Shown here piece by piece: positions 30,117 to 49,900 of a stretch of 64,000 nt of DNA. The number at the start of each line of letters is the position of its first letter. Within the stretch, counting starts at the first letter, position 1. The notes beneath the pieces were generated by a model, which was given only the letters and a program-made list of their open reading frames with translations, made no database searches and was not told the DNA's origin. Made by a program: the position numbers and the translations under genes. This DNA is from an uncultured Verrucomicrobiae bacterium. Lineage in GTDB: Bacteria > Verrucomicrobiota > Verrucomicrobiia > Chthoniobacterales > Chthoniobacteraceae. The stretch is from NCBI GenBank assembly GCA_963836755.1, contig CAWIKF010000001.1, positions 192,001-256,000 on the forward strand, given 5' to 3'.

Positions 30117-33100
30117 ATGAAATACAAGCAGTCCTTTGCTCTGAAGCTCCGCAGCCACTTTGCAGCCATCCTCGCCGCCGGCGCCGCGGTCAGCGTGTCC
30201 GACCACTCGGCGCACGCACTTAATACCGAGAATGACTACCTCAATGCCTCCACCTCGCTGAACACCCCTGCAAACTGGAGCCTCGGACATGTGCCAACCA
30301 GTTCGGAGGATGCGACCTTTGGCCTCAACTCGATTTCCAACGCCACGATCACGGGGGCCGATCTCATTTGGGGTTCTTTGGATCTCACCGCCAATAAGAC
30401 GATTTCCATCATCAACAACAGTTCCACTACGGATAGCAGCCTTACCCTGAGCGGCGGAACGGGCGACAGCGTGCTCGGGGCGAACGCCAACGATCTCATT
30501 TACGTCGCCAGCGGTGGAACCATCTCCATCAGCAATGGCGGCACGAAAGCTCTCAATCTTATCTTAGGTAAAAGCGGCAATTTCGAAGCTGTCGGAACGT
30601 TGACAATAAATTCCGTCATCTCGGATGGAGGCAATGCCTACGGCATCACGAAGACCGGCGCTGGCACGCTGACGCTTGGCGGTGCCGACACCTACACTGG
30701 CACGACCGCGATCAACAGCGGCACGGTGACAATAAGCAACACCGGCAGTCTGGCCAGCGGGAACAATGTGACCTTCGCCGGCACAGGTGCCTTTGGTGTG
30801 ACAGGAAAAACCGGTGGCAGCACGCAGACGCTCGGCACGCTGCTCAGCAGCGCAGGTGATAACACGGTGACTTCCACCTTCGGCACCGTGGGCACAACGC
30901 TGGCCATCGGCACCTATACGCGCTCGGCAGGGGCAACGACGAATTTTGTCGTCACCAACGGCGCCAACGGTTCGACCAACAAAATCACCTTGGGTAACGT
31001 CACACCGAACACGTTCATCAGTCCGGGCACGTTCTTTGGCGGCAGTTCTTACGCCTTCTACGACACTGGTGGCTTCGTGCGCGCTCTGGACTATACGAAT
31101 GACGCCGCGGCAGCGAATGCCACCACGCAGACGGGAGTCGCCACGGCTTTGACGACAACTGGAACGCCCGCGACGCAGAATGCGCAGTATGTGGGATCGA
31201 CGGGGACGGCTTCCACGGCCGCGAGCTCGACCACTGCCAGCACCACCCTTCCCGTCGCCGCGGGGACGGGGGTGAATTTCGCGCCCGGCGAGGCCATCAC
31301 CGGCACCGGAATCGCGAACAATACCTACGTCACGGCCGTCACCGGCGACACCCTCACCCTTTCGGCGAACGCGACGGTTGCGTCGGGCGCGACTGTAACG
31401 CCCTACAATGAAATCTCGGCCCAGCCGACACAGACGGTCAACACGCTCAACCTTTCGGGTGCTGGTGCCTCGGTGGCGCTGGCCTCCGGTGCGACGTTCA
31501 CCACGAACGGCATCCTGCGTTCGGGTGAAGGAGCGACGGGCGCGATCTCGACGATCACTGGCGGCACGTCGGTCACGGCGGGCGGCAGCACGGACTTCGT
31601 CATCGCCACGCCCGTTTCGACGGACATTTTGACAATCACCACCGCCGTGAATACAAACGGCGTCCTGCTGATGAAATCAGGCTTGGGGACGTTGAATCTT
31701 AACGGAGTGGTCAGCGGCAACGGCGGCGTAGTTCTCAATAGTGGAACTTTGAACCTAAGTGGCAGTAACACCTACTCCGGCGGCACCTTACTATACGGCG
31801 GAAGTTTGGGACAGATCGGCAACGCCACAGCCTTCGGAATTGGCCCTATTACGATCGGTGCACCCAATAGCGGAAACAACATCAGCTTTGCTATCGGCGG
31901 AAGCAACACCTACGCGAATGCCATTACGGTAAACGCGGGCGGGCAGCGCTATGTCTACACTGCCGGCAGTCCAACGTTCACATTCAGTGGGCCAATCACC
32001 TTGGTGGGCGGAGCGAACTTCTCGGTAGGCAGCGGCGGCGGCGGCAATACGGAAACCATCTCGGGGGGTATCACCGGCACCGGTAACTTCATCTCCGGAA
32101 GTCCGGCCGGCAACAGCAGAACGTCCAAAGTGACGCTATCGGGCGCTGCCATTAACATGACTGGCTACCTCGCCAATAACACGGCCGCGACCCTCGCCAA
32201 TGGCGGGTTTGGCTATGGATCAGACAGCGCTGCGGGCAGCAATACCACAGTGAGTGCGCAGATCGGCGCCAACGTGACCGCGTTGTATCAAAACTCGGCC
32301 ACCAATACGTTCATCCTCACCGGAGCGAGCAATCCGTTCTTCGGGGACACCATCGTTTCCGCAGGCACTTTGAACCTTCGTAACTCGACCACCTTGCAGA
32401 ACAGCGTGGTGAACTTCACCGGCGGTGCGGCGACCTTCGGCACGAGCACCACCGTGGGCCTTTCGTCCGTCACGCTCGGCGGCCTCGCAGGCTCCGGCAA
32501 CGTGAACCTAAACAACACGGTCACCGCTACGCCGGGAGCCGTGGCCTTGACCATCGGCAACAGCAATGCCAGCAACGGCAGCACTGCCAATCCGAACACG
32601 TTGAATCCGGTTTATTCCGGCATTCTCTCCGATGGCACCGCCACCGGAGCCAGTGTGACAAAGACCGGCACGAACACGCAGGAATTCTCCGGCGCGAACA
32701 CCTACACCGGCGGCACGACGATCAACCAAGGCAAGCTGCGAGTGACTAACACCACCGGCTCAGCCACCGGCACAGGCGACGTGGGCGTGACCGGGAGCGC
32801 CACGACCTTGAGCGGGACCGGTTTTGTCACCGGCAATGTCAATGTCAGCGCCAGCGGGCGGCTCGCACCCGGCACCAATACCACCGGCGCCAACAGCAAC
32901 TTCGGAGCGCCAAACCTTTTGACCCTCGCCTCGGGCAGCGGGACGACTCTTTCGCTCAATGGCGCCAACGCGGACTTCGATCTAAGCAGCACGGCGGGTG
33001 GGTCCAATGACAAGATTGCCACCAATGCGCTGAGCCTCACCGGCACGAATACCTTCACCTTCAACGAGCTCAATGGCACACTCGACACCACGAACACCTA

Positions 33101-33341
33101 CACCTTGGTAAATGGCAGCAACCCCGTGACCGGCTTCAACCCCGCGAGCTTCACCACCAATTTCATCAATACCAACGGCAGCGCGACCCTCTACACCCCG
33201 ACCTATTCGACGGACGGTAACAACCTGCTGGTCAGCTTTGCCGTCGTCCCCGAAGCCAGCACATGGGCGATGATGCTCGGCGGGTTTGGCACACTCATCG
33301 TTTTCCAGCGGATGCGCAGTCGCAAATTGGTGCGGGCGTAA
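30117..33341 (+). CDS. Surface protein A: autotransporter-associated beta-strand (PATR) repeats with PEP-CTERM-like tail
   Basis: Signal peptide MKYKQSFALKLR..AHA; KTGAGTLTLGGADTYTG repeats; tail VPEASTWAMMLGGFGTLIVFQRMRSRK. Confidence 0.9.
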   Translation: MKYKQSFALKLRSHFAAILAAGAAVSVSDHSAHALNTENDYLNASTSLNTPANWSLGHVPTSSEDATFGLNSISNATITGADLIWGSLDLTANKTISIINNSSTTDSSLTLSGGTGDSVLGANANDLIYVASGGTISISNGGTKALNLILGKSGNFEAVGTLTINSVISDGGNAYGITKTGAGTLTLGGADTYTGTTAINSGTVTISNTGSLASGNNVTFAGTGAFGVTGKTGGSTQTLGTLLSSAGDNTVTSTFGTVGTTLAIGTYTRSAGATTNFVVTNGANGSTNKITLGNVTPNTFISPGTFFGGSSYAFYDTGGFVRALDYTNDAAAANATTQTGVATALTTTGTPATQNAQYVGSTGTASTAASSTTASTTLPVAAGTGVNFAPGEAITGTGIANNTYVTAVTGDTLTLSANATVASGATVTPYNEISAQPTQTVNTLNLSGAGASVALASGATFTTNGILRSGEGATGAISTITGGTSVTAGGSTDFVIATPVSTDILTITTAVNTNGVLLMKSGLGTLNLNGVVSGNGGVVLNSGTLNLSGSNTYSGGTLLYGGSLGQIGNATAFGIGPITIGAPNSGNNISFAIGGSNTYANAITVNAGGQRYVYTAGSPTFTFSGPITLVGGANFSVGSGGGGNTETISGGITGTGNFISGSPAGNSRTSKVTLSGAAINMTGYLANNTAATLANGGFGYGSDSAAGSNTTVSAQIGANVTALYQNSATNTFILTGASNPFFGDTIVSAGTLNLRNSTTLQNSVVNFTGGAATFGTSTTVGLSSVTLGGLAGSGNVNLNNTVTATPGAVALTIGNSNASNGSTANPNTLNPVYSGILSDGTATGASVTKTGTNTQEFSGANTYTGGTTINQGKLRVTNTTGSATGTGDVGVTGSATTLSGTGFVTGNVNVSASGRLAPGTNTTGANSNFGAPNLLTLASGSGTTLSLNGANADFDLSSTAGGSNDKIATNALSLTGTNTFTFNELNGTLDTTNTYTLVNGSNPVTGFNPASFTTNFINTNGSATLYTPTYSTDGNNLLVSFAVVPEASTWAMMLGGFGTLIVFQRMRSRKLVRA

Positions 33342-33361
33342 ACGATTCCAAGCGAAACTCT

Positions 33362-33402
33362 AAAGCCGCCGCGTCATTTGCTTGGCGCAGCGGCTTTTTT
33401 TT
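33362..33402 (+). terminator. Intrinsic terminator after gene A
   Basis: AAAGCCGC...GCGGCTTT hairpin plus T-run. Confidence 0.8.
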
Positions 33403-33649
33403 CTGTGAGCAAAGGAGCCCTTTTCAAGCAGATGGGCGCGAGGAGGCACTTTGCGGACTTACCGCTCTTAACTCTCGCAAACTATCACATCCTAAGACCT
33501 GAAATAGCACACGAAAAAACATGCGATGGCCATCTTTGCCACTATTTTCCATACAGCCGAATGGCCGCCTTTGTCCGCCACAAACCTGTTTTCACTTCTC
33601 CTCAGACACAAAACAAAATCCCGTGAAAAAAACAAGTTCAGTTCGCCCC

Positions 33650-35479
33650 ATGAAAACCACCCGTCGCCGCACCTCCTTCATCCTTGCCGGTTCCATCAGC
33701 GCGTTGCTCTCCGTCCACTCCGCGCAGGCGATCATGGTAAGCAACACCGAGGATGATGTGCTCAATGGCAGCACCGATCTCACTGACCCCGCCTCCTACA
33801 ACAATGGGGCTCCCGGCACCACAAGCGACGTCACTTTTACGGCGCAGTCATACAGCCCCGCAACCTTTACCGTTCCTACAAACCTGAGCATCGGCACGCT
33901 GGATGATCTGGCCACCAACGCGCTGACCATCACTGGCGGCGGGAACTCCACCACCTTGACGCTCAATGGCGGCGCAAACTCCGTCGCCGGTGCCGATCCC
34001 GCCGATTTGATTTACGTTAAAACCTCCAACTTCACGATTGGCGCTGCTTCACCCACCATGGGTCTGGCCTTGGCCGCCTCCGGAAATTTCGACATCGCGG
34101 CTGGCACAACCACGATCAATTCGGTGATCTCCGACAGCGGCGGCGGATTCACCAAAACCGGCGCGGGCAAGCTAGTGCTTGCCAACAGCGGGAATACCTA
34201 CACAGGGCCGACCGCGATCACCGGCGGCGCGCTGAGCATCGCAGCTGAGGCCAACCTCGGGGCGGCCCCGGCATCATACGTGGCAAATCAACTGACGCTG
34301 GATGGGGGAACGCTTCAGCTTTCAGGAAACACGAGCACACAGAACTGGTCGGCGAATCGAGGCATCTATATCGGTGCGGGAGGTGGTGCCATTACTACTC
34401 CCGGCAACGATGTCCAGCATGTAAACTTCCAGGAAATCATTTCCGGCCCCGGCACGTTGACCTTGAGCCCGCGCGGAACCGGCACACGAGCGTTTATTTT
34501 GTCCGGTGCCAACACCTTCGGCGGGCTGATTATTGCGCAGAACGAGGTGGATGCAGCGAATAGCTCGGCCCTCGGTGCCGGATCGGTGCAGCTCGGCACG
34601 ACCAACAGTAATAACAATACTACGATTTATATTACTGCCAACGGTGCGAATATCACCAACAACATCACCGTCACGCCGGGTGGGACTCGCACCTTGGGAA
34701 TTAACTCAAGCGGCGGAACCAGCACATTCTCCGGCCCGATTTCTCTCACGGGAGGCACGGTCAATCCGACCCTTAATCTTGCTCAGCTGAACAACAACAG
34801 CACCCTCAACTTGACCGGCGGCATCACCGGCACGGGTAATGTCGCCTTTGCCGGCGGCATAGGCACGAGAAACAACGCAAATATAACGATCAGCGGTGCC
34901 GACGTGAACAACGTGGGCACCATCAGCAACCTCGACAGCGTCAGCTCGGGCACGAACACGATCAGCGCGAACATTGGCTCAAACGTCACAGGCATCATAC
35001 AAAATACCACCCACTCACCACTGGTCGTTTCAGGGGCGAACACTGCCTTCGCTGGCACAACCACGGTTACCCTTGGCACTCTTTCGACCAGTTCCGCGGG
35101 CACTCTCGGAAGTGGGAACGTGGCGGTCGCGGACACCGCTGGGGCGATCCTGACCTTGCAGAACACGGCTTCGATTGGCAGTTCGGCCATCCTCAGCTTC
35201 GGCACGAATTCAGCGATCAACATGAACTTTACCGGCGACGACACACTCGCCGGAATCACCGACACGACCACCTCGCAAATGCTCGCGCCCGGCACTTACA
35301 CGGCAGATCAACTCAATACCTTCTTCGGTGTCAGCTCCTTCGCGACCACCAATGGCGACCCAACGACCGCCACGTTCAGCGTCGTTCCCGAGGCGAACAC
35401 GTGGGCGCTGATGCTTGGCGGGTTTGGCACGCTGGTAGTTTTCCAGCGGATACGCCGCCGGAGCTCGCAGCGGGTGTAG
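33650..35479 (+). CDS. Surface protein B: PATR repeats with PEP-CTERM-like tail
   Basis: Signal peptide MKTTRRR..AQA; TKTGAGKLVL..NTYTG; tail VPEANTWALMLGGFGTLVVFQRIRRR. Confidence 0.88.
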   Translation: MKTTRRRTSFILAGSISALLSVHSAQAIMVSNTEDDVLNGSTDLTDPASYNNGAPGTTSDVTFTAQSYSPATFTVPTNLSIGTLDDLATNALTITGGGNSTTLTLNGGANSVAGADPADLIYVKTSNFTIGAASPTMGLALAASGNFDIAAGTTTINSVISDSGGGFTKTGAGKLVLANSGNTYTGPTAITGGALSIAAEANLGAAPASYVANQLTLDGGTLQLSGNTSTQNWSANRGIYIGAGGGAITTPGNDVQHVNFQEIISGPGTLTLSPRGTGTRAFILSGANTFGGLIIAQNEVDAANSSALGAGSVQLGTTNSNNNTTIYITANGANITNNITVTPGGTRTLGINSSGGTSTFSGPISLTGGTVNPTLNLAQLNNNSTLNLTGGITGTGNVAFAGGIGTRNNANITISGADVNNVGTISNLDSVSSGTNTISANIGSNVTGIIQNTTHSPLVVSGANTAFAGTTTVTLGTLSTSSAGTLGSGNVAVADTAGAILTLQNTASIGSSAILSFGTNSAINMNFTGDDTLAGITDTTTSQMLAPGTYTADQLNTFFGVSSFATTNGDPTTATFSVVPEANTWALMLGGFGTLVVFQRIRRRSSQRV

Positions 35480-35601
35480 CGCAGCGCGGGAAAAACTCCC
35501 GCAACTGCGTCACACCATATCGCGCCGATCGTCTTTTCATGCGCGGGAAATCAAATTCACCGCGCCACCGCATTTCTGCCAAGCCTCGCGCGCGACGATG
35601 C

Positions 35602-35646
35602 GCCTTCCAACGCGCCCGCCGCCGGCGGCCCGCCCGCGTGAGCTAA
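35602..35646 (+). pseudogene. Relic 3' tail of a deleted fifth PEP-CTERM-like paralogue
   Basis: Reads AFQRARRRRPARVS*, compared with WQRGRRRKSVRLS* in C and D; followed by the same terminator stem. Confidence 0.65.
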
Positions 35647-35666
35647 GCGAAAGACACGATCAAAAC

Positions 35667-35699
35667 AAAAAGCGCCGCAGGAGACTGCGGCGCTTTTTT
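35667..35699. terminator. Bidirectional intrinsic terminator
   Basis: AAAAAGCGCCGCAG-GAGA-CTGCGGCGCTTTTTT between convergent genes. Confidence 0.85.
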
Positions 35700-35790
35700 A
35701 GTTCTTAGTAAGATGTCAGAAGTGCCCGCTCTGCATTTCGAGCACTGCTCACGCATCCGCGCGCACCAATTCCTAAATCCTAAAATCTCC

Positions 35791-36495
35791 TCACCCTCTC
35801 ACCAGCACCGTCTGAATCGCACTCTCCACCCCCACGGCCGAATCCTTCAGATACGCCTGCCCCTGGATCTCCCACTCCTCCGGTTGGCCCGGCGTCGCGA
35901 TCGGGATGTGTAGCATCGCCGGCGTCGCCATGAAGCGGCCGAGATCACTCCACGTGCTCGTGCCCGCTTTGCGTCCTTGGAAATTCATCGCTGTGATCTG
36001 GCCATTCGCCTTGCGGAACTTCGCGCTGACCGTCGCCGTCGCCGTGCAAGTCACGCCAGTGATCACCGCCACGTAGCTGGTGGGATTAAAACTGCCGGCC
36101 GTCGCTTCCGTCCGCAGCGTATTTCCCTGCACGGCGGGATTGTAGCTCGTCGAGCTTTTCACTGCCTGCACCCATTTTTCGCGACGCGCCTCGATTCCCG
36201 CCAGCACTGCTGCGGGCGCAACCGGCATCGCGGGCACCGGTGGAACGACGGGTGCGGGTTGGTCAATCGCCCCGTCCAGGTAGGAGTGGATGTAGCCTGT
36301 GATGGAGGTCACGAAGCCTTCGTAGACATTCGGCAGCGTCCGGTAGAGATAGACCGCCATGGCCGCATCGGCGAGAATGGAGGTGAGTTGTGTGGCGGAA
36401 ACGCCGCAGGCCGTGAGCGTCGGTCCCTGGGTGGCGATGTTGGCCCACCAATCGGCGCGGCCTTCGTTGTTTGGGGAATAGTAACCTTGTGACAT
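35791..36495 (-). CDS. Uncharacterised 234-aa protein: helical N-domain, Pro-rich linker, probable FN3/Ig-like C-domain
   Basis: MSQGYYSPNNEGRADWWANI start after an A-rich leader; protein-like composition; beta-strand-rich C-terminus (W.DLG..ATP..PGQPEEWE...VGVES); no signal peptide. Confidence 0.75.
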   Translation of the reverse strand: MSQGYYSPNNEGRADWWANIATQGPTLTACGVSATQLTSILADAAMAVYLYRTLPNVYEGFVTSITGYIHSYLDGAIDQPAPVVPPVPAMPVAPAAVLAGIEARREKWVQAVKSSTSYNPAVQGNTLRTEATAGSFNPTSYVAVITGVTCTATATVSAKFRKANGQITAMNFQGRKAGTSTWSDLGRFMATPAMLHIPIATPGQPEEWEIQGQAYLKDSAVGVESAIQTVLVRG

Positions 36496-36579
36496 AGTTT
36501 TTTGTTCTTTCGTTTCTGTTGGGTTTTGCCACCCCGTCATGGGGCGGCTTTGGGCGGATTCTTACCTCCGCCGCCGCGA

Positions 36580-36610
36580 TGTCGAAACCTTTAGTGTTAA
36601 GATTTCGACA
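36580..36610. promoter_or_regulatory. Operator-like imperfect palindrome
   Basis: TGTCGAAACCTTTA-gtg-TTAAGATTTCGACA, 12 of 14 arm positions complementary. Confidence 0.5.
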
Positions 36611-36705
36611 CATTGGATTCGAACGGCTACAAAATCGTTCCAGCCGCCCACCGCATCCCGTGCCATCGCCGCTGGCAGCGAAACAGCCGGCGCACGGCAT
36701 CGATC

Positions 36706-36961
36706 GGTGACCACCAGACGGCGAATGGTCGCCACCCGACCGGAGATAGTGGCCACCTTTCTGGAATGGTGGGCACCGGACAGGAAATGGTGGCCACCAT
36801 CGCGGAATGGTGGGCACCTGCGAGCATTTGGTGGCCACTTTTTGCAAATGGTGGCCACCTGAGAGGTTTTGGTGGTCACCATTTTGGAAAGGTGACCACC
36901 GGGGACGAATTGGTGGCCACCTTTTAGAAATGGTGGCCACTATTTGGAAAAGGTGAGCACT
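36706..36961. repeat. Phased array of 13 palindromic GGTG-NN-CACC boxes, period 21/20 bp
   Basis: Box starts: 36706, 36727, 36748, 36768, 36789, 36809, 36830, 36850, 36871, 36891, 36912, 36932, 36952. Confidence 0.95.
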
Positions 36962-37350
36962 TTTCTCGAGCAATTCCAGCCTTTTACTCTGTTGAGCAGC
37001 ACGGGAGGAGGTTTCTCGGCCCCTTGGACCAGCCGATCTGAGTGCCAGGCGAGAAGAGGGGAGCGCACGCAAGCATCCGTTTACGCCGCGCATCGTCATG
37101 GCGACGATTGTCACACGTCCGTGCGCACTCGCCTGTGCTCGCCGAGCAGTCCCATCCCAAATTGCTGAGAATGCATATAAAAAGTCACAAAATAGAATTG
37201 GACGCCATTCGCAGCCGGATTATTTTCCCCGCGCTCGATCCCCTTTGTGCTGCTTTTCCCCGAACCTTTATCCCACACGAACCCGCGTAAACAGAGGCAT
37301 CGCGGTCATTTTTCAAGTGCCGGAGCCACATTTCCCGCGGCTCCGAAAAA

Positions 37351-37405
37351 TTCTCACAAGAAAGTGAAAAAATTATTTGACGCCCGCTTTCCGCTCCGGT
37401 ATCTT
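37351..37405 (+). promoter_or_regulatory. Sigma-70 promoter of gene C with upstream TCAC-N6-GTGA site
   Basis: TTGACG(37377)-17 nt-TATCTT(37400); conserved in the paralogous copy before gene D. Confidence 0.7.
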
Positions 37406-37449
37406 CCATCCCAGCAGCTCCCATTCTCATTAAAAACCTCCCGTTTCAA

Positions 37450-40400
37450 ATGAACCAATCTTCGATCTCGAATTCCGTCTCCATCAACCTCTCAGCCTCC
37501 AAAAGCAGAATGAAATACAAGCAATCCTTCGCCCTCAAGCTCCGCAACCGCGTCGCAGCGGTCATCGCCACCACCGCCGCGATCACGATGTCCAGCCACT
37601 CGGCTCACGCGCAGAATACGGTGGACAATTACACCGGCACCACGACCGGAAACGTCACTACGCCTGGCAACTGGAGCTTGAACGCGGTCCCTGTCATTAC
37701 CAATGATGCCGTTTTCCCAGTCGGCGCCGCCACCGGCGTTAGGAATTTCAGCGTAGGCAACGGCGCCTCTGTGGGACCGAGCTTGGTGGTTGGTTCGCTG
37801 GACGATTTATCCACAGGAACCACGGTCACGATCCAGAACGTTACGACCTCTGCCTCCGCTGTCACCATTACCTTGGGCGGTGCGGGTAATCTTGGAAATT
37901 CTGTCAGCGGAACCGCCGCCGATTTGTTTTACGTTGCGACGGGCGGAACTTTCAACATTACGGGCACTGGCGGCACTGGTGCCACCCTCGGCCTCGTTCT
38001 CGGCCAATCGGGTAATTTTGATGTCGCCGGCACCTCGACCATCACTTCGATCATCAGCGATGGCGGAAACGCCTTTGCGATCACCAAAACGGGCGCTGGC
38101 ACCCTGACGCTCTCGGGTGTCAATACCTTCTCCGGCGGATTCACCGTCGGCGCGGGCACTGTGACTTTCGGCGGCAATGCTGCCAATCTGGGGGCCGGCG
38201 CGATCGGTCTCGGCATAGCCTCCGGCTCTACGAACGCGATCCTGCAGTATAATACGGGGGGGGTCAACACGTTCACTAATGCGGTCAATGTCAACGCAAC
38301 TTCCGGTGGGACGCTGGAAATCTTGAACAGTTCCGGTTCTGTAAACTTCTCGGGGCCGGTGACGCTAGCCAACAACCTGCTGTTGGTGAATACCAACGGC
38401 ACCACCACAAATACCCTGACGCTCAGCGGGAATATCACTGGCACGGGTAATATCACCGCCAGCGCTACGACTGGAGCGCCCATCATTCTTACTGGAACGA
38501 ACTCTTACATCGGCACCACGACCCTGACGGCGAACAACTTGTATGCGGAGAATACAGGAGCGACAAATGTCGATAAGGCACTCAGCACGGGCACAGTGAT
38601 TTTGAATGGCGGCAGTCTCTTTCTGAAAGCCGACGGCAGCGGCAATGCTCAAACGATCATCACGGGCGACGGGACGACGGGCAACAACGTCACGGTGGGC
38701 GGAAACACGACCATTGACGTCAATAAGCTGGTAGCGGCCAACACCGGAAATACTTTTGTGCTCAACAACCTGAGCATTGGCGCAAACACACTCAACGTCA
38801 CAGGCGGGAGCAGCTACGCGCTGAAGTTCGCGGGCACGACGACCTTGACGGGCAACGCCACATTCAGCCCCAGCACGGCGAACCTCACTTTGACCGGCGT
38901 TATCGGCGACGGCGGCAGCGGATTCACGCTCACGAAAACCGGAGCAGGCACACTGTCGCTAGCCGGCGCGAATACCTACAGCGGCTTGACCACGGTTTCC
39001 GCCGGAACGCTCTCGCTGGCGGGTGGCACCATTGCCAACAGCAACGTCAGCCTCGGTTCAGCCACCTTCCAGGTTCTGAATGATGGTGCAGGCAGCAATG
39101 GGACGATCAGTCTCGGCAATAACGTCACTGTTAATGGAGCGACTACGACGGATACCATCAATGTCGGCAACAACGGCAGCGGGAACACTGGCAATACTGT
39201 GGCGTTCGGCGCGTTGAGCAACGGAACACCCGCTCAAGGTAACGCGGTCACGATCAATTTTACCGGCGCCAATGGCTACTTGGAAAGCTTCAGCAGTCTG
39301 GCACTGACCGGCGGTGGGGGTCAAGGAACCACCTTAAATCCGACGAGCACCTCGGTCACCATCCTGGGCAATGTCACCAATCAGATTACCACCAATCCGC
39401 CGACGGGAAAATTTGACACTCTGGTCCTCAGCGGCACCAGCTCGGGCAATGCGATCAATGGTGTCATCGCCGACAACGCCAACTACACCTCGGTCGGCAA
39501 CGGAGACACTCGAGTCACCATGACCGGCACCGGCTCGTGGACGCTCGGCGGCGCGAACACCTACCACGGTCCCACGACCGTCAACAACGGCACTCTCAAG
39601 TTGGGTCTCACCAATGCCATTCCGACGGCCAGTGCGCTCACGGTTTCGGGCTCGGGTGCGGGAGTGACCGCCATTCTCGATTTGGCGGGCTTCGATGAGA
39701 CCAACAGCAGCCTGAGCTTGGGCGGCAGCACCGCTACCAGCGGCGCGACTGTCACGAACTCCACTGGCAGCAGCACGCTCAAACTCACGGCCGGTGCGAC
39801 TTATTCGGCCACCAACAATCCGCTGGGTGCCACGATTTCCACCACCACCCTCGACCTGAACGGCGCGGCGCAGACCTTTACCGTTGGCGACAGCACCACG
39901 GCGCCATTTGATCTCTCCATTTCCTCCGTCATTCAGAACGGCTCTCTCATCAAAGCAGGCTCCGGCGTCCTCGCTCTGAGCGGCGCGAATACCTATGCTG
40001 GGGGAACGTCGGTTACTGCCGGCACTCTCGACTTTCAAAAGACGGCGGCGAAGCCGGTGGCCGGAACCACCACCGTCTCCAGCGGCGCCACTCTGGGACT
40101 CGGGGTGGGAGGAGCGGGATTTTTTGGTGCGGCGGATGTGAATGCCTATCTGACGAATACACTTTCCGGCGTGAGCGCATCTCGGAATCTCGCGATCGAT
40201 ACGACAGCCGGTGACTTTAGCCTGGGAGGCCTCGCCCTCCCGAATGGTTTGCGCTCTATCGCCAAGCTGGGCGCCAATACCTTGAATCTGGGCGGGATTA
40301 CTCGCACTCTGGGGATTTTGAATTTGCCGAACGCGACCGGTGCGGTCACGACCACGAACAGCAATGACGCAAGCGGCATCCTCGGGCCTTGGGCGACCAT

Positions 40401-43400
40401 CGGCACCGGTGCATCGATCAGCTACGCGGTGGCCAACGGCGGCAGCACCCCCATCAGTGCGTTGCCTGTCGCCTCGCAGACGGGTCTAGGGAACGCAGGA
40501 GGAGGCACGGTGGACATCACGAACTTCATCGATAACACCGGCAGCAAAACATTCACGGCGAATGTGGCGGCCAATACTATCGAGAATAGCTTTGCCGGCG
40601 TGACGCTGGCCAACGGCGGCTTCAGCGTGACCACGAACGGCATCCTCGACCTGACCGGCACAACGTTCAGCGGGGCCGGACATATGAAGGCCGGTGCGAC
40701 CAAGGAACTCGACATCATCAACACGAACGTGACCACGACGATCAGCTCGGTCATCGAGGATTCGGCGTCTGGCCCATCGTCGTTGGTTTTTGCCGGCGTC
40801 GGCGGGGGCACCCTGGTTCTTGGTGGAACTACTAATACCTACACTGGCAAGACCTTGATCACCAACGGCACCATTTCCATCTCCGTTGAGGCTGCTCTCG
40901 GTGCTACGCCGGTTTCAGCCGTGGCTGACGAGATTACTCTCGATAACGGCACTCTCCTCGTGACGGGTTCGGGCAATCAAGTTATACTGACCGCAAACCG
41001 GGGGATCACCCTCGGAACCTACGGTGGAACTTTGAATCCTGGCTCCAACAATGCCAGCCTCACGGTGAATGGCGTCATCACCGGCTCTGGCTCGCTGACT
41101 ATTAATGGGAGTAACGCCAGCGGTCGCTTTTTTACTCTTGGTGGTGCGAATACTTACACTGGCGACACCAGTATTCAAAACTCTACCGTGCTGAATGTGA
41201 ATACTGCGACAGCCTTCGGCGTTGGCGGCACGGTGTCCGTTGGCTCCTCCGGAAGTAACCTCACTCCTAATATCAAGATCGGTAACTTCACTGTCGCAAA
41301 CGCGATTTCGGTGACCGCGGGTGGAGGGCGCAATTTCCTCGCCGTTGGAGCAACGAGCGGTCTGAGCGGTGCGATCGCATTGGTCGGTGGAGCGACGAAT
41401 CCCACCTTGAATCTGGGCATTAGCGGCAACAATGAGACGTTTAACATCACCGGCGGAGTGACCGGCACGGGGAACATTTCCCTGGGTTCTGGATCGTCTG
41501 CCGTGACTGGCGCGCAAATCAATCTCAGCGGGGGCGCGATCAACAATATCGGCACGATCACCAATGTGGGGGTCGTTACTTCGGGCACATACACCATCAG
41601 CGCCAATATCGGCTCGAATGTCACGGGCGTGATCCAGAACAGCAGTGCGGTTCCTCTGGTATTGAGCGGAGTGAACACCTACACCGGCGCGACCGCCATC
41701 AATAGCGGCAAACTCCGCTTGACCGGTTCGCTGACGAGCGCGGTAACGGTGGGCAATGACTCAGCCACCACGGCCATCTTCTCTGGCACGGGCACGACAA
41801 CGGGCTTGGTGACCACTTTCACCAATGGAGCGAACGTTGCCTACCTCGCCCCTGGCGTGAATGTCAGCGGCACCCGCACCGACTTCGGTGCAGCCGGCAC
41901 GCTGCACCTGAACAATGGGTTGACTATCGGCAACGGGACGCAGCTTGATTACGACTTGGGCACCTCGCAGGATTTGATCGCCGGCAGCGGCGCTCTTAGC
42001 CTTGGCACCGGAGTCACTGTCAACGTTGCCGATCTTGGTGGCCTGGCGACAGGCACCGCTTACACCCTGATCAGTGGCTTCGGCTCCCACAGCGGTGACG
42101 TGAGCACATGGACGGCGGCTGGCACGGCACCCGCCGGCACGACGGGCTACACCTTTGCTCTTAGCGGCAACGACGTGACGCTGAAATTCATCGGGGCGGC
42201 GGCGACTGCGACCAGCTACTCGCTCGCAGCGGTGGCGGCGAACAACAATGTGCTCGTCAACCACGCCACAGGAGTCACCAGCACGATCACCAACACCGGC
42301 ACCGGCACGGCGGATACGCTCGACTACACCGGCTTGAGCGCAAGCGCGACCGGCGGCACGATCACCGGGGCGGCGACCAATGGCGGCCCGCTGGCGCTAG
42401 GCGCGAGCGGCAGCAACTCCGGGTTGACCTACAACGCGGGAGCCACCAGCGGCACCTACGCAATTGCGGTCACCCCGACCGTGGGCACCGCCACCAATGA
42501 CACCATCGGCGGCAGCGCTTCCAACAGCGGCACGACGACACAGGCGGTGACGGTGTATGACGCCGCCTCGCTCAGTGGCAGCGGGCTCAACGTGGCCAAC
42601 GCCGCGGGAACTTTCCGCGCCTCGGCCGCGGTGACTTCCGAGAGCTTCAATGGCCAGGCTGGCTTCACGGCCGCCGGCGGCCTTGTTGGCACGCAGATCG
42701 ACGCAGGCACCTCCACGGCAGCGGCGACCTTCGACAGCACCGGCAAACTCAACGGCACCTATAACACCACCGCCACCATCGGCTTCAACGATGTGACCAG
42801 CGGCAGCGCAGCCATCGCAGGCGGCACGGGTGACAGCGCTACGGGCATCGCCCTTTCGGCGACGGTCACCGGCAAGACCAACAACGGCAGCGCCACGGTG
42901 CTCGCGGGACAAAGCTACGCGGGCTACGGATTGACCAGCTCCGGCTTTGCCCAGAGCCCGACCACGGCCACGCTCCTCGACGGTCACGCCGGCGTGGGCA
43001 ACACAGGCCCTCTCTCCGATGGGCTGGATCACACCGTCGTCATGGCCTTCTCGAACGGGGTCGGCGGCGAACCGAACGACGCGAGCAAGCTGAGCGATGT
43101 GCTGACCTTGACCGGCACCAACACCGACAAGTTCGTGCTGCAACTCACCTACACCGGCACACCGGCCCAAGGCACTCCGTTCCTCGCCTACTACAGCGCG
43201 GCCTACGGCGGCTATGTCAACGCGATTGCAGGCAACAGCAGCGGGAACATGACCCCGTTCGGCGGAGCCGCATACGGAGAAATCGCAGGCGCCTATGATC
43301 CGAACAACGACTTCGTGCTCGGCGACTACGGGTTTGATGCCGCCAACCACACCGCGTGGGCAGTGCTCGATCACAATAGCGACTACGAAGTCATCCCCGA

Positions 43401-43491
43401 GTCCAGCACTTGGGCATCACTCGCAGCCGGCTTCAGCACGCTCATCGTGTGGCAGCGCGGACGCCGCCGGAAGTCAGTGCGCCTGAGCTAA
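37450..43491 (+). CDS. Surface protein C (2013 aa): PATR repeats with PEP-CTERM-like tail
   Basis: Extended signal peptide; multiple KTGAGTL..GANTY repeats; tail IPESSTWASLAAGFSTLIVWQRGRRRK. Confidence 0.92.
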   Translation: MNQSSISNSVSINLSASKSRMKYKQSFALKLRNRVAAVIATTAAITMSSHSAHAQNTVDNYTGTTTGNVTTPGNWSLNAVPVITNDAVFPVGAATGVRNFSVGNGASVGPSLVVGSLDDLSTGTTVTIQNVTTSASAVTITLGGAGNLGNSVSGTAADLFYVATGGTFNITGTGGTGATLGLVLGQSGNFDVAGTSTITSIISDGGNAFAITKTGAGTLTLSGVNTFSGGFTVGAGTVTFGGNAANLGAGAIGLGIASGSTNAILQYNTGGVNTFTNAVNVNATSGGTLEILNSSGSVNFSGPVTLANNLLLVNTNGTTTNTLTLSGNITGTGNITASATTGAPIILTGTNSYIGTTTLTANNLYAENTGATNVDKALSTGTVILNGGSLFLKADGSGNAQTIITGDGTTGNNVTVGGNTTIDVNKLVAANTGNTFVLNNLSIGANTLNVTGGSSYALKFAGTTTLTGNATFSPSTANLTLTGVIGDGGSGFTLTKTGAGTLSLAGANTYSGLTTVSAGTLSLAGGTIANSNVSLGSATFQVLNDGAGSNGTISLGNNVTVNGATTTDTINVGNNGSGNTGNTVAFGALSNGTPAQGNAVTINFTGANGYLESFSSLALTGGGGQGTTLNPTSTSVTILGNVTNQITTNPPTGKFDTLVLSGTSSGNAINGVIADNANYTSVGNGDTRVTMTGTGSWTLGGANTYHGPTTVNNGTLKLGLTNAIPTASALTVSGSGAGVTAILDLAGFDETNSSLSLGGSTATSGATVTNSTGSSTLKLTAGATYSATNNPLGATISTTTLDLNGAAQTFTVGDSTTAPFDLSISSVIQNGSLIKAGSGVLALSGANTYAGGTSVTAGTLDFQKTAAKPVAGTTTVSSGATLGLGVGGAGFFGAADVNAYLTNTLSGVSASRNLAIDTTAGDFSLGGLALPNGLRSIAKLGANTLNLGGITRTLGILNLPNATGAVTTTNSNDASGILGPWATIGTGASISYAVANGGSTPISALPVASQTGLGNAGGGTVDITNFIDNTGSKTFTANVAANTIENSFAGVTLANGGFSVTTNGILDLTGTTFSGAGHMKAGATKELDIINTNVTTTISSVIEDSASGPSSLVFAGVGGGTLVLGGTTNTYTGKTLITNGTISISVEAALGATPVSAVADEITLDNGTLLVTGSGNQVILTANRGITLGTYGGTLNPGSNNASLTVNGVITGSGSLTINGSNASGRFFTLGGANTYTGDTSIQNSTVLNVNTATAFGVGGTVSVGSSGSNLTPNIKIGNFTVANAISVTAGGGRNFLAVGATSGLSGAIALVGGATNPTLNLGISGNNETFNITGGVTGTGNISLGSGSSAVTGAQINLSGGAINNIGTITNVGVVTSGTYTISANIGSNVTGVIQNSSAVPLVLSGVNTYTGATAINSGKLRLTGSLTSAVTVGNDSATTAIFSGTGTTTGLVTTFTNGANVAYLAPGVNVSGTRTDFGAAGTLHLNNGLTIGNGTQLDYDLGTSQDLIAGSGALSLGTGVTVNVADLGGLATGTAYTLISGFGSHSGDVSTWTAAGTAPAGTTGYTFALSGNDVTLKFIGAAATATSYSLAAVAANNNVLVNHATGVTSTITNTGTGTADTLDYTGLSASATGGTITGAATNGGPLALGASGSNSGLTYNAGATSGTYAIAVTPTVGTATNDTIGGSASNSGTTTQAVTVYDAASLSGSGLNVANAAGTFRASAAVTSESFNGQAGFTAAGGLVGTQIDAGTSTAAATFDSTGKLNGTYNTTATIGFNDVTSGSAAIAGGTGDSATGIALSATVTGKTNNGSATVLAGQSYAGYGLTSSGFAQSPTTATLLDGHAGVGNTGPLSDGLDHTVVMAFSNGVGGEPNDASKLSDVLTLTGTNTDKFVLQLTYTGTPAQGTPFLAYYSAAYGGYVNAIAGNSSGNMTPFGGAAYGEIAGAYDPNNDFVLGDYGFDAANHTAWAVLDHNSDYEVIPESSTWASLAAGFSTLIVWQRGRRRKSVRLS

Positions 43492-43515
43492 GGCGACAGT
43501 CGCAACCATTACTCC

Positions 43516-43556
43516 AAAAAGCGCCGCAGTTCGAAAGACTGCGGCTCTTTTTTTTT
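43516..43556 (+). terminator. Intrinsic terminator after gene C
   Basis: GCGCCGCAGT-tcgaaag-ACTGCGGCTC plus T-run. Confidence 0.85.
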
Positions 43557-43841
43557 GCGCTGAGTAAGAACGGCCTGCTCGCCGCTCTGAGCGCTGGCGA
43601 TTTTTACCGACTCTCTTTCCCACACGGTCCTTCCAATCGAGTAGCGCTGTTTTGTCCGGAAGATAACGGAAATGTCACAAAAAGGACGCTGACACAACGC
43701 CACAAAATCTCGTTTTCTTAGCGCTCGATCGCCGCGCGCCGCTTTTCTCGCCGACTTTTTATCTCCCGCGGAGCCTGTCTGGACAGAGTAATTGCGTCGA
43801 TTCCAGCCAAATCACCCATCGTTTCCGGTGTCGCCAAAAAA

Positions 43842-43896
43842 ATGTCACAAAAAAGTGAAAAAATTATTTGACACCCATTTTTCCCTCCGCTATCTT
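43842..43896 (+). promoter_or_regulatory. Sigma-70 promoter of gene D with upstream TCAC-N6-GTGA site
   Basis: TTGACA(43868)-17 nt-TATCTT(43891). Confidence 0.75.
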
Positions 43897-43940
43897 CCAT
43901 CCCAGCAGCCCCCATTTTAATTAAAAACCTCCCGTTTCAA

Positions 43941-46900
43941 ATGAACCAATCTTCCATCTCCAATTCAGTTTCCGCCAACCTCCTCATCAAAACCTCCAAA
44001 AACAAAATGAAATACAAGCAATCCTTCGCCCTCAAGCTCCGCAACCGCGTCGCAGCGGTCATCGCTACCACCGCCGCATTCTCGATGTCTGCGCAGGCGG
44101 CAGATACCACCACTTCTTCGTGGCTCGGCGGAACGACCAACTGGTCAACCTCCGCGGGGAACTGGAGCGCCGGCGTGCCTTCTGCAACGATCAGCGCGAA
44201 GTTTGACGGGACTTTCACGAACCAGCCGACCCTCACCGCGGCTTCTACGGCACAGGGAATCTGGTTGGCCACTGGCGATGCCCAGGATGTGACGATCAAT
44301 GCGGCTTCTGCCTTCACGCTCAGCTTGACCGGCACGGCCACCTTAAATAGTCAGACCAATGCCGGTATCATCATGACCGATACGGCGAATCACAACCTCA
44401 CGATCGGGCCGAACGTGAGCATCACGCTGTCCAACCCTACTGGTTTTTATAACAATGAAGCGACGGGTCTCCTGACGGTCTCTGGCGGTTTAAACACGAA
44501 TGCGAAAGCCCTGGCCATTGCTGGCACGGGTGCCACGACCCTCTCCGGTGTTGTTAGCGGCAGCGGTGCAATTACCATCAGTAACGGCGGCACGGTGACG
44601 ATTTCGAACATCACTGACTCCTATAGCGGCCAGCTCACCGTTCAGAACGGCAAGTTGAAGATCGATACGATCAATAACACGAGCGCGAATGGTGAATTGG
44701 GTAACAATGCGCTTGCTGTCATCCTGGGCAATACGGGCGGCCAGACCGGCACGCTGGACTACACCGGCGTCACGGCAGCGAGCAGTAAGAAATTCACGAT
44801 GGCCACCGGCGGCACCGGCGCTTTCCAGATCGATACAGCGGCGGCTGTCCTCACACTCAGCGGCGTGATTGACGGCGGCGGCGCGCTCACCAAGACAGGT
44901 GGCGACACCGCGAGCGTGCTCCTTCTCTCGGGTGGAAACTCCTACAGTGGTGGTTTGAATGTCGTCACCGGCACGGTGAAGCTCGGCAATACCACCGGCT
45001 CGGGTGCCGCGACAAACATCGTCTCCGTCGGCACGGGTGCGACTTTCGATATCGCGACTTTCTCGCCAACCATCGGCGGTTTGACCGGATTGGGAACGGT
45101 GACCAATAGCAGCACAGCGGGCACGCTGACCATCAACTCCACGACCACCAACACCTTTGGCGGCGTGATCACGGCAGTCACCCCTGCCAACCTCTTGCTG
45201 ACCAAAAGCGGTTCGGGAACTCAAATCCTGACCGGCGCGAACACCTACACTGGCGCGACCACCATCAATGCGGGCATTCTGCAATTGAGCGGCGCAACCG
45301 GTGCCTTGGCGCTTTCCGCCACGGCCCCGGCGTTGAACGGCGGCTCTTTGATCCTGGATAACACCGGTGCTGCCAGCAACAACAACAACCGTATCGCCGA
45401 TACACAGGCACTCGCGCTCAACGGCGGCAACTTCGTTTACAAAGGTTCCGATCAAGGGGCCACCAACTCCACGGAGACCATCCAAAACCTCAGCGGCACT
45501 GGCAATTCCACCATCACGGTCTCCTTCGGCGGCACGAACGGGGCTACTCTCACGGCGGGAACCTTTACGCACGCAGCGGGCAATGCCACCGATATGGTCA
45601 ACGGTGTAAACCTTGGCAAAAACTCGACGGATGCCGCGAGCTTCGCCCGTTTCATCAGCACTGCGCCGACTCTGACCGGCACGACGAACGCCCTCACGAC
45701 GGGCATCAATTCCGCTGTCAAGAACACGAAAATCGTTCCGTTCCTGGTGGGCGAAGCGACTTCGACCACTGGCGGCTTGGGAACGGCCACCGGCACGGCG
45801 AATACTTTTGTCACCTACATTGCCGGCAGTGGCTATCGCCCGTTGAACCCGACCGACGAGTTCACCAACAACGCCATCACGGCAGGCACTAACACTTACG
45901 TCACCACGGGGGCTACCAACACCGCCAATACCTCGATCAATTCCCTCGTCATCAATGGCGGTGACGTGACGGTCAACGACGGCTTCACCCTCACGAACAC
46001 CAGCGGCGCCTTGCTCTTTGCTTCGTCGAACAGCATCAAACCCAGCGGCACGACCGGCCTCTACACGGGTTCTGCGGAAAACCAGATCACGGTGAATTCC
46101 GCTGTGACCGGCACCATCAGCGCGATTGTGAGCGGCTCGCAAGCCCTCACCAAGAGCGGCGCGGGCACGCTGGTGCTCAGCGGGGCGAACACCTATAACG
46201 GCGCCACGACCCTCGCCGCGGGCACGCTGAACCTTAGCAATGCGCTGGCTCTGCAAAACAGCACCTTGACGTATAGCACCGCCGGCACATCGCTGGTATT
46301 CGATGCAGCGGGCGGCACCGCCTTTACCCTTGGTGGCCTGACCACGGGCAACAACATTCTTTTAGCTAATAATGGTTCAGCTGCAATCAACTTGACCGTG
46401 GGCGGCAACAACAGCTCGACGACCATTGGTGGTGTCCTCTCGGGCACGGGCGGCTCGCTGACGAAGACTGGCACTGGCACGCTGACTCTGGGTGCAGCGA
46501 ATACCTACACCGGCGCGACGGTCGTCAATGGGGGCAAACTCTACCTGCAAAATGGTGCGACGCTCAAGTTCAGCTCCTCTGTCACTGCGACCGGAACCGG
46601 CTTGCTCGCGATGAACAACGGCAGTGAAAGCGGCCAGTTTGCGGCGGGAGTGGTAATCCAGGGCACTGGTGGCTTTAGCAACGAGATCAACAACCCGAAT
46701 ACCAACGTAACTTTAGACCGGGACAATACTTATACCGGGCAGACGACATGGGGATCTCGAGGTGTCACCGCAGCGGGCGTGGTCTCAAAATACGACGTCA
46801 GCGGCAACCAGATCAGCGGTGCCTTTGGCGTCAATTCAAAGATTAATTTTGCCGCCCAGCCGTCTACGTTGCTTTTAAGCGGCAATAACAACCAGGTTGG

Positions 46901-49900
46901 GTCGCTGTCCGGGACGCCCGGCGGCGGAGGTGGCGTGCTGCTGCGTGGTGCAACCATCACGATCGGCGGAGACAACACAGACGCCACCTACACCGGGCCT
47001 ATTACCAATAACTATTTACCGGGCACCGATCAAAACGGCAACGGCAGCACTGGCCAAGTTGCAGGCGGTAATGTCATCAAGATCGGCACCGGCACGCAGA
47101 CCATCGTTTCAACCAACAACCCCAGCGGCTATGAGGGGACAACGACCATCAAGGGCGGTGTGCTGAGCATCAATGTGCTGGGAACCAACGGGGATACTGC
47201 TAACAACCCAAATGGAACGAGCGGCTATGTGACCGCGACGACTACGATCGTCAACACCACGACACTTACGGTTGCGAGCGGCACGACGGGTTTGGTTAAA
47301 GGTATGAGTGTATTCGATCTCCAGTCGCTTGGTAACGGAGCGAAAATCACCAATCTCGTGGACAACGGCACGACTATCACGATTACCTTATCCGCCGGTC
47401 TTAATGCGGGCGTTACTGGAACCAAAACCAATGTAAACTATGGTTTTGGCAGCGGCATCGGCCTTGCCGGTCCCGCCGCATCCACCCTCGTCCTTGACGG
47501 CGGCACGCTGCGATACACGGGTGTGGCGACCACCACCGACCGTCTCTTCACCGTCGGCTCCACGGTCGCTGGCGCGACGGGAACACTCGATGCCTCTACC
47601 GGGGGGGCTATCACCTTCGGCAACACTGGCGCAATCGCCTACGGGACGATCGATCAAACCCGCACGCTCGGCCTCACTGGCAGCACTGCCGGGAACATCT
47701 TCAATCCCCTGATTGGCGACAATGGCGCGGGTGCAGTTAGCGTGCTCAAATCGGGCACGGGTTCCTGGACGCTCACGAACACGGGCAACGCCTACACTGG
47801 TGGAACCACCGTCAACGCCGGCATCCTGACTTCCGCAGTGACTGGTGGCTTCGGCGCAGGCAATGTGACCGTGAATCCGACCGGAAACACTTTGGCGGAT
47901 GCGACGACGTTAAACTCGACCGGCAGCATCGCCTCGACGGCGCTGGTCACGGTTAACAACAACGTTGCCGCCATCGGCACGGTGAACTTTAACGGCGCGG
48001 CGCCGACCATCGGCGGCTTGACCGGCAGCGGCAACGCGGTCCTCAACAACGCGACCGGAACTGCATTGACCGTGGGCAGCACGAACAACCTCGACTCGAG
48101 CTTCACAGGCGCCATCAGTGAAGGCACCGTCGGAATGGGCAGCCTCATCAAGGCGGGCACTGGCACACTGGCCTTGGGCGGCACGAATACCTACACCGGC
48201 GCGACCACGGTCGCGAACGGCAAACTCCGCTTGACCGGCTCGCTGACGAGCGCGGTAACGGTGGGAAATGATAGCGCGACCACCGCCATCTTCTCCGGCA
48301 CGGGCGCGACGAGCGGCTTGGTGACAACGTTCACCAATAACTCGAACATCGCCTACCTCGCGCCTGGCGTGAATTCCACCGGCACCCGCAGCGACTTCGG
48401 TGGGGCTGGCACGCTGCACCTGAACAATGGGTTGACCATTGGCAACGGGACTCAGCTTGATTACGACTTAGGCACCTCGCAGGATTTGATCGCCGGCAGC
48501 GGCGCTCTCTCGCTCGGCACGGGTGTCACGGTGAACGTCGCCGACCTGGGTGGCCTGACGACCGGCACGACCTACACGCTGATCAGCGGCTTTTCCGGCG
48601 TAACCGGCAGTCCGACAGGATGGACGGCGGCTGGCGCGACGCCTTCTGGCTCGACCGGCTACACCTTTGCCCTCAGCGGCAACGATGTGACACTGACCTT
48701 CAACGCTCCTGTGAGTGCGACGGCGACGACCTACTCGCTGGCAGCAGTGGCAGCGAACAACAATGTGCTCGTCAACCACACCACAGCAGTCACCAGCACG
48801 ATCACCAACACCGGCACCGGCACGGCGGATACGCTCGACTACACCGGCTTGAGCGCAAGCGCGACGGGCGGGACCATCACCGGGTCTGCGACCAACGGCG
48901 GCCCGCTGGCGCAAGGCGCGAACGGCAACAACCCCGGGTTGACCTACAACGCGGGAGCCACCAGCGGCGCCTACGCAATCACCCCGACCGTGACTACCGC
49001 AACCAACGACACGGTAGGCGGCAGCGCGAGCAGCAGCGGCACGACACCTCAAGCGGTGAACGTGTATGATGCAGCCTCGCTCAGCGGCAGCGGACTCAAC
49101 GTAGCCAACGCAGCGGGATCTCCGCTCCGCGCCTCGGCCGCAGTGACTTCTGAGACCTTGAGCGGCCAATCCGGCTTCACCGCCGCGCTGGTCCCCGGCA
49201 CCACGAAGATCGACGCGGGCACTTCCACGGCAGCGGCGACCTTCGACAACACCGGCAAGCTCAACGGCACTTATCACACAACCGCCACTGTCGGCTTTGA
49301 TAATGTGACCAGCGGCAACGCTGCCATCGCAGGCGGCGCAGGCGACAGCGCCACCGGCATCGCCCTGAGCGCCAGCGTCTCCGGCAAGACCAACACCGGC
49401 AGCGCCACGGTGCTCGCGGGACAAAGCTACGCGGGCTACGGCTTGGGCAGCACGTTTACCGACAGCACCACCGCCACGCTCCTCCAAGGCAACGCCGGCG
49501 TAGGCAACACAGGCCCTCTCTCCGATGGGCAGGATCATACCGTCAACATGGCCTTCTCCAACGGGGTCGGCGGCGAACCGAATGATGCCAGCAAGCTGAG
49601 CGACGTGCTCACCTTGACCGGCACCAACACCGACAAGTTTGTCCTGCAACTCACCTACACTGGCACACCGGCCCAAGGCACACCGTTTATCGCCTACTAC
49701 AGCGCGGCCTACGGCGGCTATGTCAACGCGATTGCCGGCAACAGCAGCGGAAACATGACCCCCTTCGGCGGACCCGCCTACGGAGAATTGACGGGTGCGT
49801 ATGATCCGAACAGCGAGTTTGTCCTCGGTGACTACGGGTTTGATTCCAACACCAACACCGCATGGGCAGTGCTCGATCACAATAGCGACTACGAAGTCAT

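Follow-up and report, generated by a model that had tools for sequence, protein, structure and literature searches.

In plasmid iteron and centromere systems, repeats bound by a Rep or centromere-binding protein lie next to a gene at a spacing of roughly two helical turns. In TIGR-Tas systems short repeats alternate with 8-12-nt intervals beside one gene and vary between loci, each unit having two variable spacers with edge and loop repeats, the partner being a Nop-domain protein and the arrays being processed to RNAs of about 36 nt (PMC12045711). BrickBuilt and the 464/PgRS minisatellite-containing MITEs of Porphyromonas gingivalis combine a dispersed multi-copy leader with tandem repeats of 23-nt and 41-nt units, show patchwork unit variation and are present or absent between strains; BrickBuilt has IS5-type terminal repeats and one unit sequence, with neither in-gene insertions nor a partner gene (PMC4596501). 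Rickettsia palindromic elements are non-autonomous and sit in-frame in metabolic genes, each being a single palindrome of about 150 bp with a conserved peptide, and are portrayed as neither phased in tandem nor linked to a gene family; pneumococcal BOX elements are treated there as further non-autonomous repeats (PMC10969869). PARCELs are palindromic tandem repeats of 25 codons coding for a conserved peptide, which spread within and between genomes and may lie in ORFs (PMC2996958).

The array analysed here lies in a window of 64,000 nucleotides, i.e. the whole stretch of DNA under study. Like iterons and centromeres it has repeats next to a gene with a spacing of roughly two helical turns, binding being putative here; unlike them it stands next to a helical plus FN3 protein without a Rep or HTH family match, belongs to chromosomal arrays of many copies and has a unit that changes faster than the protein. 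The class to which it belongs is dispersed, multi-copy, non-autonomous and variable in presence, as MITEs are, and shares with BrickBuilt the pairing of leader and tandem repeats, but shows dozens of units on one period, a fixed partner gene family and in-frame insertions, and no terminal repeats were identified. In-frame insertion into housekeeping genes is found as for the Rickettsia elements, whereas a single palindrome and a conserved peptide are not; unlike PARCELs, the arrays are mostly intergenic, in part frame-breaking and devoid of a conserved peptide. A full-text literature search, largely outside subscription journals, returned no description of the module. The array class is real and strange and apparently undescribed, and the locus adds gene-less copies, in-frame insertions with empty sites, a unit swap at 92% protein identity and a common leader.

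Geometry, linkers and folding of the focal array

The original prediction, made from the letters alone, described 13 boxes with periods of 21, 21, 20, 21, 20, 21, 20, 21, 20, 21, 20 and 20 and with six 10-nt and six 11-nt gaps between them. Number of boxes, periods and gaps were all recovered exactly, the boxes starting at 36706, 36727, 36748, 36768, 36789, 36809, 36830, 36850, 36871, 36891, 36912, 36932 and 36952; in place of the GGTG of the consensus GGTG-NN-CACY, box 2 has GGTC.. and box 3 AGTG... The two-box pattern matches 15 times in the window, always within the array, and in none of 100 shuffles, and the box phase fits 10.25 bp per turn, with a coherence of 0.98 compared with 0.48 at 10.5 bp per turn. 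A period of 21 bp is compatible with two helical turns or with seven codons; the 41-bp period at this locus scrambles any peptide repeat, as the prediction had argued from its breaking of the reading frame. One frame is open across the whole array (36263-37114), which is expected by chance, since that strand holds only 2-3 stop triplets; the resulting 283-aa ORF was rejected as a gene, having no Pfam match and overlapping the real gene. On the minus strand the module runs from the leader motif through the array, a sigma70-like site and the 234-aa gene to a terminator-like hairpin (Table 1).

Table 1. Features of the module and their positions in the window
Feature	Position	Strand	Description
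Leader/end segment	36962..36993	-	Motif ACAGAGTAAA at 36983-36993 points into the array
Palindromic box array	36706..36961	.	13 boxes of 10 bp, GGTG-NN-CACY, alternating 10-/11-nt linkers, 41-bp dimer unit
8-bp inverted repeat TGTCGAAA ... TTTCGACA	36580..36610	.	Overlaps the -35 hexamer; read from sequence
Sigma70-like promoter candidate TCGACA-16-AAGAAT	36558..36585	-	Between array and gene; 9/12 consensus matches
234-aa gene	35791..36495	-	Helical N-terminal domain and C-terminal FN3 domain (135-234)
Bidirectional terminator-like hairpin	35667..35698	.	Closes the module

The gaps had been contrasted as conserved 10-nt linkers and unique 11-nt spacers. The 11-nt gaps do all differ, but they are related, their mean pairwise identity being 0.50 compared with 0.26 for random genomic 11-mers (0/5000 draws reach 0.50), with an invariant G at position 2 and an invariant T at position 11; as the 10-nt gaps score 0.61, the contrast is one of degree only. 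The proposed search for further arrays of the same box was productive and found three in this genome (C1:29626, C1:630179 and C2:713501), whose linkers are near-uniform and of the types GGAA(C/T)GGAAA(A/T), TTTTGGAAAT and AAAATGAAAA. Against the first type, two of the six 11-nt spacers reach 8/11 and 9/11 and the remaining ones 4-6, close to a null mean of 4, and 4/6 of the 10-nt gaps match TTTTGGAAAT at 8-9/10. The 11-nt "spacers" are copies of one linker altered by ordinary decay, and the two-tier pattern is best read as an amplified 20+21-bp dimer which later decayed. The model of a processed array with unique spacers finds no support here, the spacers deriving from one linker and the sister arrays carrying the same linkers homogeneously; the phased DNA scaffold is the better-supported of the two models offered, binding being putative. 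The caution that single 11-mers are uninformative was justified (1-5 exact genomic matches compared with 1-2 expected). As to the outcome named as refuting, a degenerate minisatellite, its decayed spacers were indeed found, while the expected lack of gene association was not, the association being strong and conserved.

Of the five hairpins proposed for the 30-nt unit, one shows a compensated change, that of boxes 9 and 10, which are each other's exact reverse complement as claimed; two keep an uncompensated G.G mismatch and two a G.T pair. Folding of the array is strong on both strands (z about -8), and minimum-energy folds mostly pair boxes other than those of the proposed hairpins.

Unrelated, externally acquired spacers as in CRISPR were not found, the 11-mers being 50% mutually identical compared with 26% in the null, and Cas1 (PF01867) has 0 matches in the 96%-complete genome, a control having matched in 7/14 genomes. 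Short repeats set off by intervals of similar length beside one gene, and repeats differing from locus to locus, are common to these arrays and TIGR arrays (PMC12045711); likeness in the TG...CCA ends is limited to the focal array. In contrast to TIGR arrays, one linker here is near-constant and the other a decayed derivative of one ancestor, and both box classes are the same palindrome. The focal neighbour has FN3 as its C-domain and an N-domain without clear match; Nop (PF01798) has 0 matches in the genome, although divergent Tas domains may escape the profile. A three-box pattern of the GGTG unit occurs in 0/400 other genomes of the order, and array plus leader DNA gave no real match in 40 relatives, with one 28-bp match only. 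The single viral match of the box pattern was discarded as a coding NYGTVTT repeat. In sequence scans, such two-tier repeats may be mistaken for CRISPR or TIGR arrays, and the interest of the locus lies in the array class rather than in "unique spacers".

Gene association and the genome-wide class of arrays

The genome, that of a soil bacterium which named homolog loci put among the Chthoniobacterales, comprises 3.18 Mb. The AlphaFold model of the 234-aa protein is confident (pLDDT 94.7), and its FN3 domain is recovered with Z 10.9 and an rmsd of 2.3 over 89 residues. A fold search with the helical N-domain returned generic helical bundles only (best Z 5.4) and no viral match below E 4, a result which shows neither novelty nor absence. 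At E<=0.001 the family counts 629 representatives; searches of Pfam, NCBIfam and PDB by sequence found nothing for it, no Pfam or NCBIfam family emerged among 108 members beyond single chance matches, and ESM Atlas matches are confined to unnamed Verrucomicrobiota clusters and a weak fn3 lead. The protein has a pI of 6.7, conserved basic residues that are only scattered, and no recognisable DNA-binding fold. The sigma70-like candidate is weak alone (2 sites found compared with 0.6 expected), while its -35 hexamer and spacing are retained in a 75%-identical paralog; most gene-linked loci have no consensus promoter. Lying between array and gene, this weak match would place the array outside the mRNA. 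The adjoining inverted repeat, retained only in part in the paralog, is a possible operator. The window also contains, at 30117-49997, four large genes in tandem for surface proteins of PATR/PEP-CTERM type, the 5' region near 37330-37450 being duplicated at 43822-43941 (86% over 120 nt).

We observed the fixed upstream position of the arrays directly. An upstream array is present at 8/8 paralog loci in this genome (one split), at 8/8 loci in the sister species G002 (scores 0.56-0.73) and at 1/2 loci in G001, the other locus there being a partial hit. Among 24 homolog loci of other genomes with enough upstream sequence, 20 score at least 0.45 upstream and four fall below this threshold; duplicates (L002, L003), partial hits (L039, L044) and L073 (32 upstream bases) were left out of the count. 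Arrays occur downstream of 0/25 homologs, and in 2.8% of 2591 gene-upstream regions as background. The distance to the gene start is 36-240 bp, and upstream placement is kept across families of the phylum with the unit replaced, the gene family itself being patchy and multi-copy (22/61 genomes of the family, up to 14 matches). Replacement of the unit is equally a direct observation: arrays of 92%-identical proteins (L027/L028 compared with L029) and pairs of 80% and 75% identity, the latter being a paralog pair, have essentially no recurrent 7-mers in common, and the 99%-identical L027 and L028 have all of them in common. In these comparisons the repeat units change faster than the proteins, while the period stays. 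The L027/L028 upstream region belongs to a distant homolog (42% identical) and has boxes of the form GGTG-NN-(C/G)ACY, resembling the focal ones, on a 21-bp period, so the box recurs however distantly the proteins are related. At L070 and L072 (G504), the array and the helical plus FN3 gene are separated by short Trp/Asp-rich ORFs.

The focal array is one member of a genome-wide class which was outside the view of the original prediction. A periodicity scan gave 67 candidates (shuffled maximum 29 against a threshold of 50), and removal of one genuine coiled-coil gene left 66 arrays of 75-372 bp, covering 1.1% of the genome. Their best lags are 42 (26 arrays), 21 (23), 41 (9), 63 (6), 62 (1) and 45 (1), counts which are partly circular as the detector scanned lags of 20-22 and 41-42 only; an unbiased TRF run also has 21 as its commonest period (164/728 rows). 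The 41-bp period of nine arrays breaks the frame and the 21-, 42- or 63-bp period of 55/66 preserves it; self-complementarity exceeds the mirror control in 47/66. Judged by eye, 20 arrays are gene-linked and about 46 gene-less, with no clear difference in homogeneity (p 0.11). Eight of the gene-linked arrays precede the paralog loci of the 234-aa family and 12 precede other orphan proteins, helical or FN3 and of about 200-350 aa, two of which match Pfam fn3 and one of which is reduced to a 104-aa FN3 fragment. Each gene-linked array has its own repeat unit, and 9/13 multi-copy unit families contain a gene-linked member.

Leader motif and mobility

The leader sequence ACAGAG is enriched pointing into arrays (18/134 flanks compared with 1.7 expected), 13/18 CAGAGTAAA sites of this genome lie near catalogued arrays, and 19/30 leader sites of G001 and G002 adjoin arrays, 13 pointing inward and six outward. 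About 35 leader bases align between arrays of unrelated unit in three species. With respect to array and gene, the leader is found in every one of the four possible orientations; it does not conform to the sigma70 consensus and points inward at both ends of two arrays only (C1:29626 and C1:311008). G008 has 42 leader copies in a dispersed intergenic repeat and no family gene, and gene matches number 8 in G024 and 14 in G266, where only 0-1 leader copies are found, which uncouples the leader from the gene family. At the G008 leader sites (L156-L175, 20 regions) 0/21 adjoin a 21-bp array and several adjoin 10-bp repeats; the leader as a marker of 21-bp arrays only was thereby ruled out. The leader is thus an intergenic signal of the whole lineage which goes together with phased repeats one or two turns long, and it is not specific to the adjacent protein.

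Gene-less copies were directly observed, sharing repeat unit and leader motif ACAGAGTAAA with gene-linked arrays, and so were insertions in housekeeping genes at places where relatives have none or a different array. The gene caller places eight arrays inside long ORFs, three of which we compared with relatives; the genes concerned, and that next to C1:630179, we take from recognition of their sequences to be alaS, ispG, nrdJ and leuA. In nrdJ, 148 residues separate the anchors compared with 74-75 in 4/4 relatives, the array adding 73 codons. The ispG segment has 136 residues compared with 46-72 in the four relatives that parsed (a fifth did not), and the insertion is absent from 4/4; the leader motif lies at the edge of the insert, part of it possibly being host sequence. 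The alaS loop is 150 residues long in this genome and 111 in G002, the latter containing another 21-bp array whose core is GGTG-N4-CACC; it has 113 non-repetitive residues in G001 and only 40-46 in three other genera (G003, G004, G021). The peptides encoded by the in-gene arrays are unrelated to each other. G001 and G002 lack the sister array C1:630179 that follows leuA; presence and absence were seen for this and other arrays of the class, not for the focal locus. The G001 alaS loop (L065) has a non-repetitive insert of about 70 residues where this genome (G000) and G002 have arrays, and this insert presumably resembles a helix-turn-helix domain. The 1187-aa AlaS of G000 (C1:58953-62516; L056) contains as in-frame inserts a 21-bp array, REP-like palindromes and a RAYT-like segment matching Y1_Tnp, and IspG has a REP-like in-frame insert similar to those of AlaS.

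Neither terminal repeats nor target duplications nor a mobilising enzyme were identified at the arrays, the relatives being too diverged to read a duplication. An origin as integron cassettes was rejected, few attC-like repeats lying within 400 bp of any array and none near the focal one. Dispersed attC-like repeats are found at about 30 C1/C2 sites. G000 C2:765050-766066 we assume from its sequence to be an integron integrase-like gene; an array-plus-gene module adjoins its 3' end and likewise that of its homolog in G002 (L084).

Explanations for the array class

The reading that we put first, tentatively and at a little less than an even chance, is that the array is a mobile, swappable non-coding DNA cassette in which helical phase is conserved over sequence and which likely serves as a docking platform for a protein multimer. 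According to this model, a leader motif and about 13 palindromic boxes two helical turns apart, upstream of the predicted promoter, would let a multimer assemble on one face of the DNA, reading spacing and palindromic shape above fixed sequence; the bound platform would regulate the downstream helical plus FN3 gene, and a trans-acting enzyme of the host or of a mobile element might copy the cassettes. The adjacent protein is the first candidate binder, a common host factor being about as likely. DNA geometry is favoured over coding by the 41-bp arrays, by steps that mix 20 and 21 bp, and by 41 loci among which no upstream ORF is placed consistently. Unit turnover at 92% protein identity disfavours strict cognate, sequence-specific binding. 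The docking platform is also weakened by the adjacent protein having no recognisable DNA-binding fold and by the uncoupling of leader and gene family, and the frame kept by 55/66 arrays fits a coding constraint as well. A related scheme, to which we give a rather low probability, makes the module selfish without a recognisable transposase: the helical plus FN3 protein would polymerise on its phased array, recognising spacing and not sequence, the filament both controlling the gene and promoting copying or renewal of the cassette. New arrays would be built from a fresh unit of about 21 bp behind the conserved leader, and swapped units, gene-less copies and heptad insertions in essential enzymes would all follow from this.

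The strongest competitor of the docking platform, though we consider it unlikely, is a selfish or neutral dispersed minisatellite of BrickBuilt or BOX type in which the gene plays no part, the gene link then reflecting joint transfer or an insertion hot spot. The many gene-less arrays, several in permissive protein loops, the decayed spacers, the leader found without the gene family and the GGTG unit occurring in 0/400 other genomes of the order would all suit it. Against it, the strictly upstream position at 36-240 bp before the start persists in different families of the phylum despite unit replacement, and neutral decay would not be expected to rebuild, time after time, an array with an unchanged period. 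Also on the improbable side is an RNA array, a leader-driven transcript forming long hairpins or small RNAs as ligand of the adjacent protein. Good folding of both strands, mutual complementarity of boxes 9 and 10 and a leader common to several arrays speak for it, as does the reading of plus-strand boxes as TG...CCA, by analogy with TIGR repeats (PMC12045711). Palindromic boxes make folding trivial, however, one hairpin of five is compensated and two have G.G mismatches, the spacers are mutually related and identical in sister arrays, the leader shows neither a fixed orientation nor a sigma70 consensus, TG...CCA is missing from other unit families, and the genome has neither Cas1 nor a Pfam Nop match; Rfam gave 26 weak matches, none at the gathering score. 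Within this reading, the strong form, in which unique spacers would serve as guide RNAs in the manner of CRISPR or TIGR, is barely credible. Translation of the arrays from upstream ORFs as hypervariable heptad peptides, 21 bp being seven codons, has a slim chance: the 41-bp period of the focal array and eight others scrambles any peptide repeat, start and stop placement is inconsistent over 41 loci, five of which have no open frame on the gene strand, and a codon-phase bias appears in 1/53 arrays, a test of low power in which even a true coiled coil did not exceed the null. In agreement with translation, 55/66 arrays have periods of 21, 42 or 63, a frame is open over the focal array (36263-37114) and stop triplets are scarcer on the gene strand (125 compared with 253 expected) than on the other (179 compared with 288). 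Open frames of gene-linked arrays are somewhat more numerous on the gene strand (32 compared with 18 on the other), which keeps the coding alternative alive for strict-21 arrays. Very improbable, finally, is a role of the array in activating a sigma-54 promoter from upstream. The genome does encode sigma-54, and near-perfect promoters lie about 35 bp before the start at L041 (perfect -24/-12) and C2:764535 (9/10), but at the focal locus the best match has no GC at -12 and is wrongly spaced, and 2/36 loci score at least 9/10 compared with 44/2593 background genes.

If the docking-platform reading is correct, a widespread bacterial gene family would have as its partner a cis element that keeps its geometry and exchanges its entire sequence, which sets it apart from operators, iterons and guide arrays; the module is small and directly testable. 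The same cassettes are spread over the chromosome and add 70-110 residues to essential enzymes, and thereby represent a source of protein innovation comparable to the Rickettsia palindromic elements.
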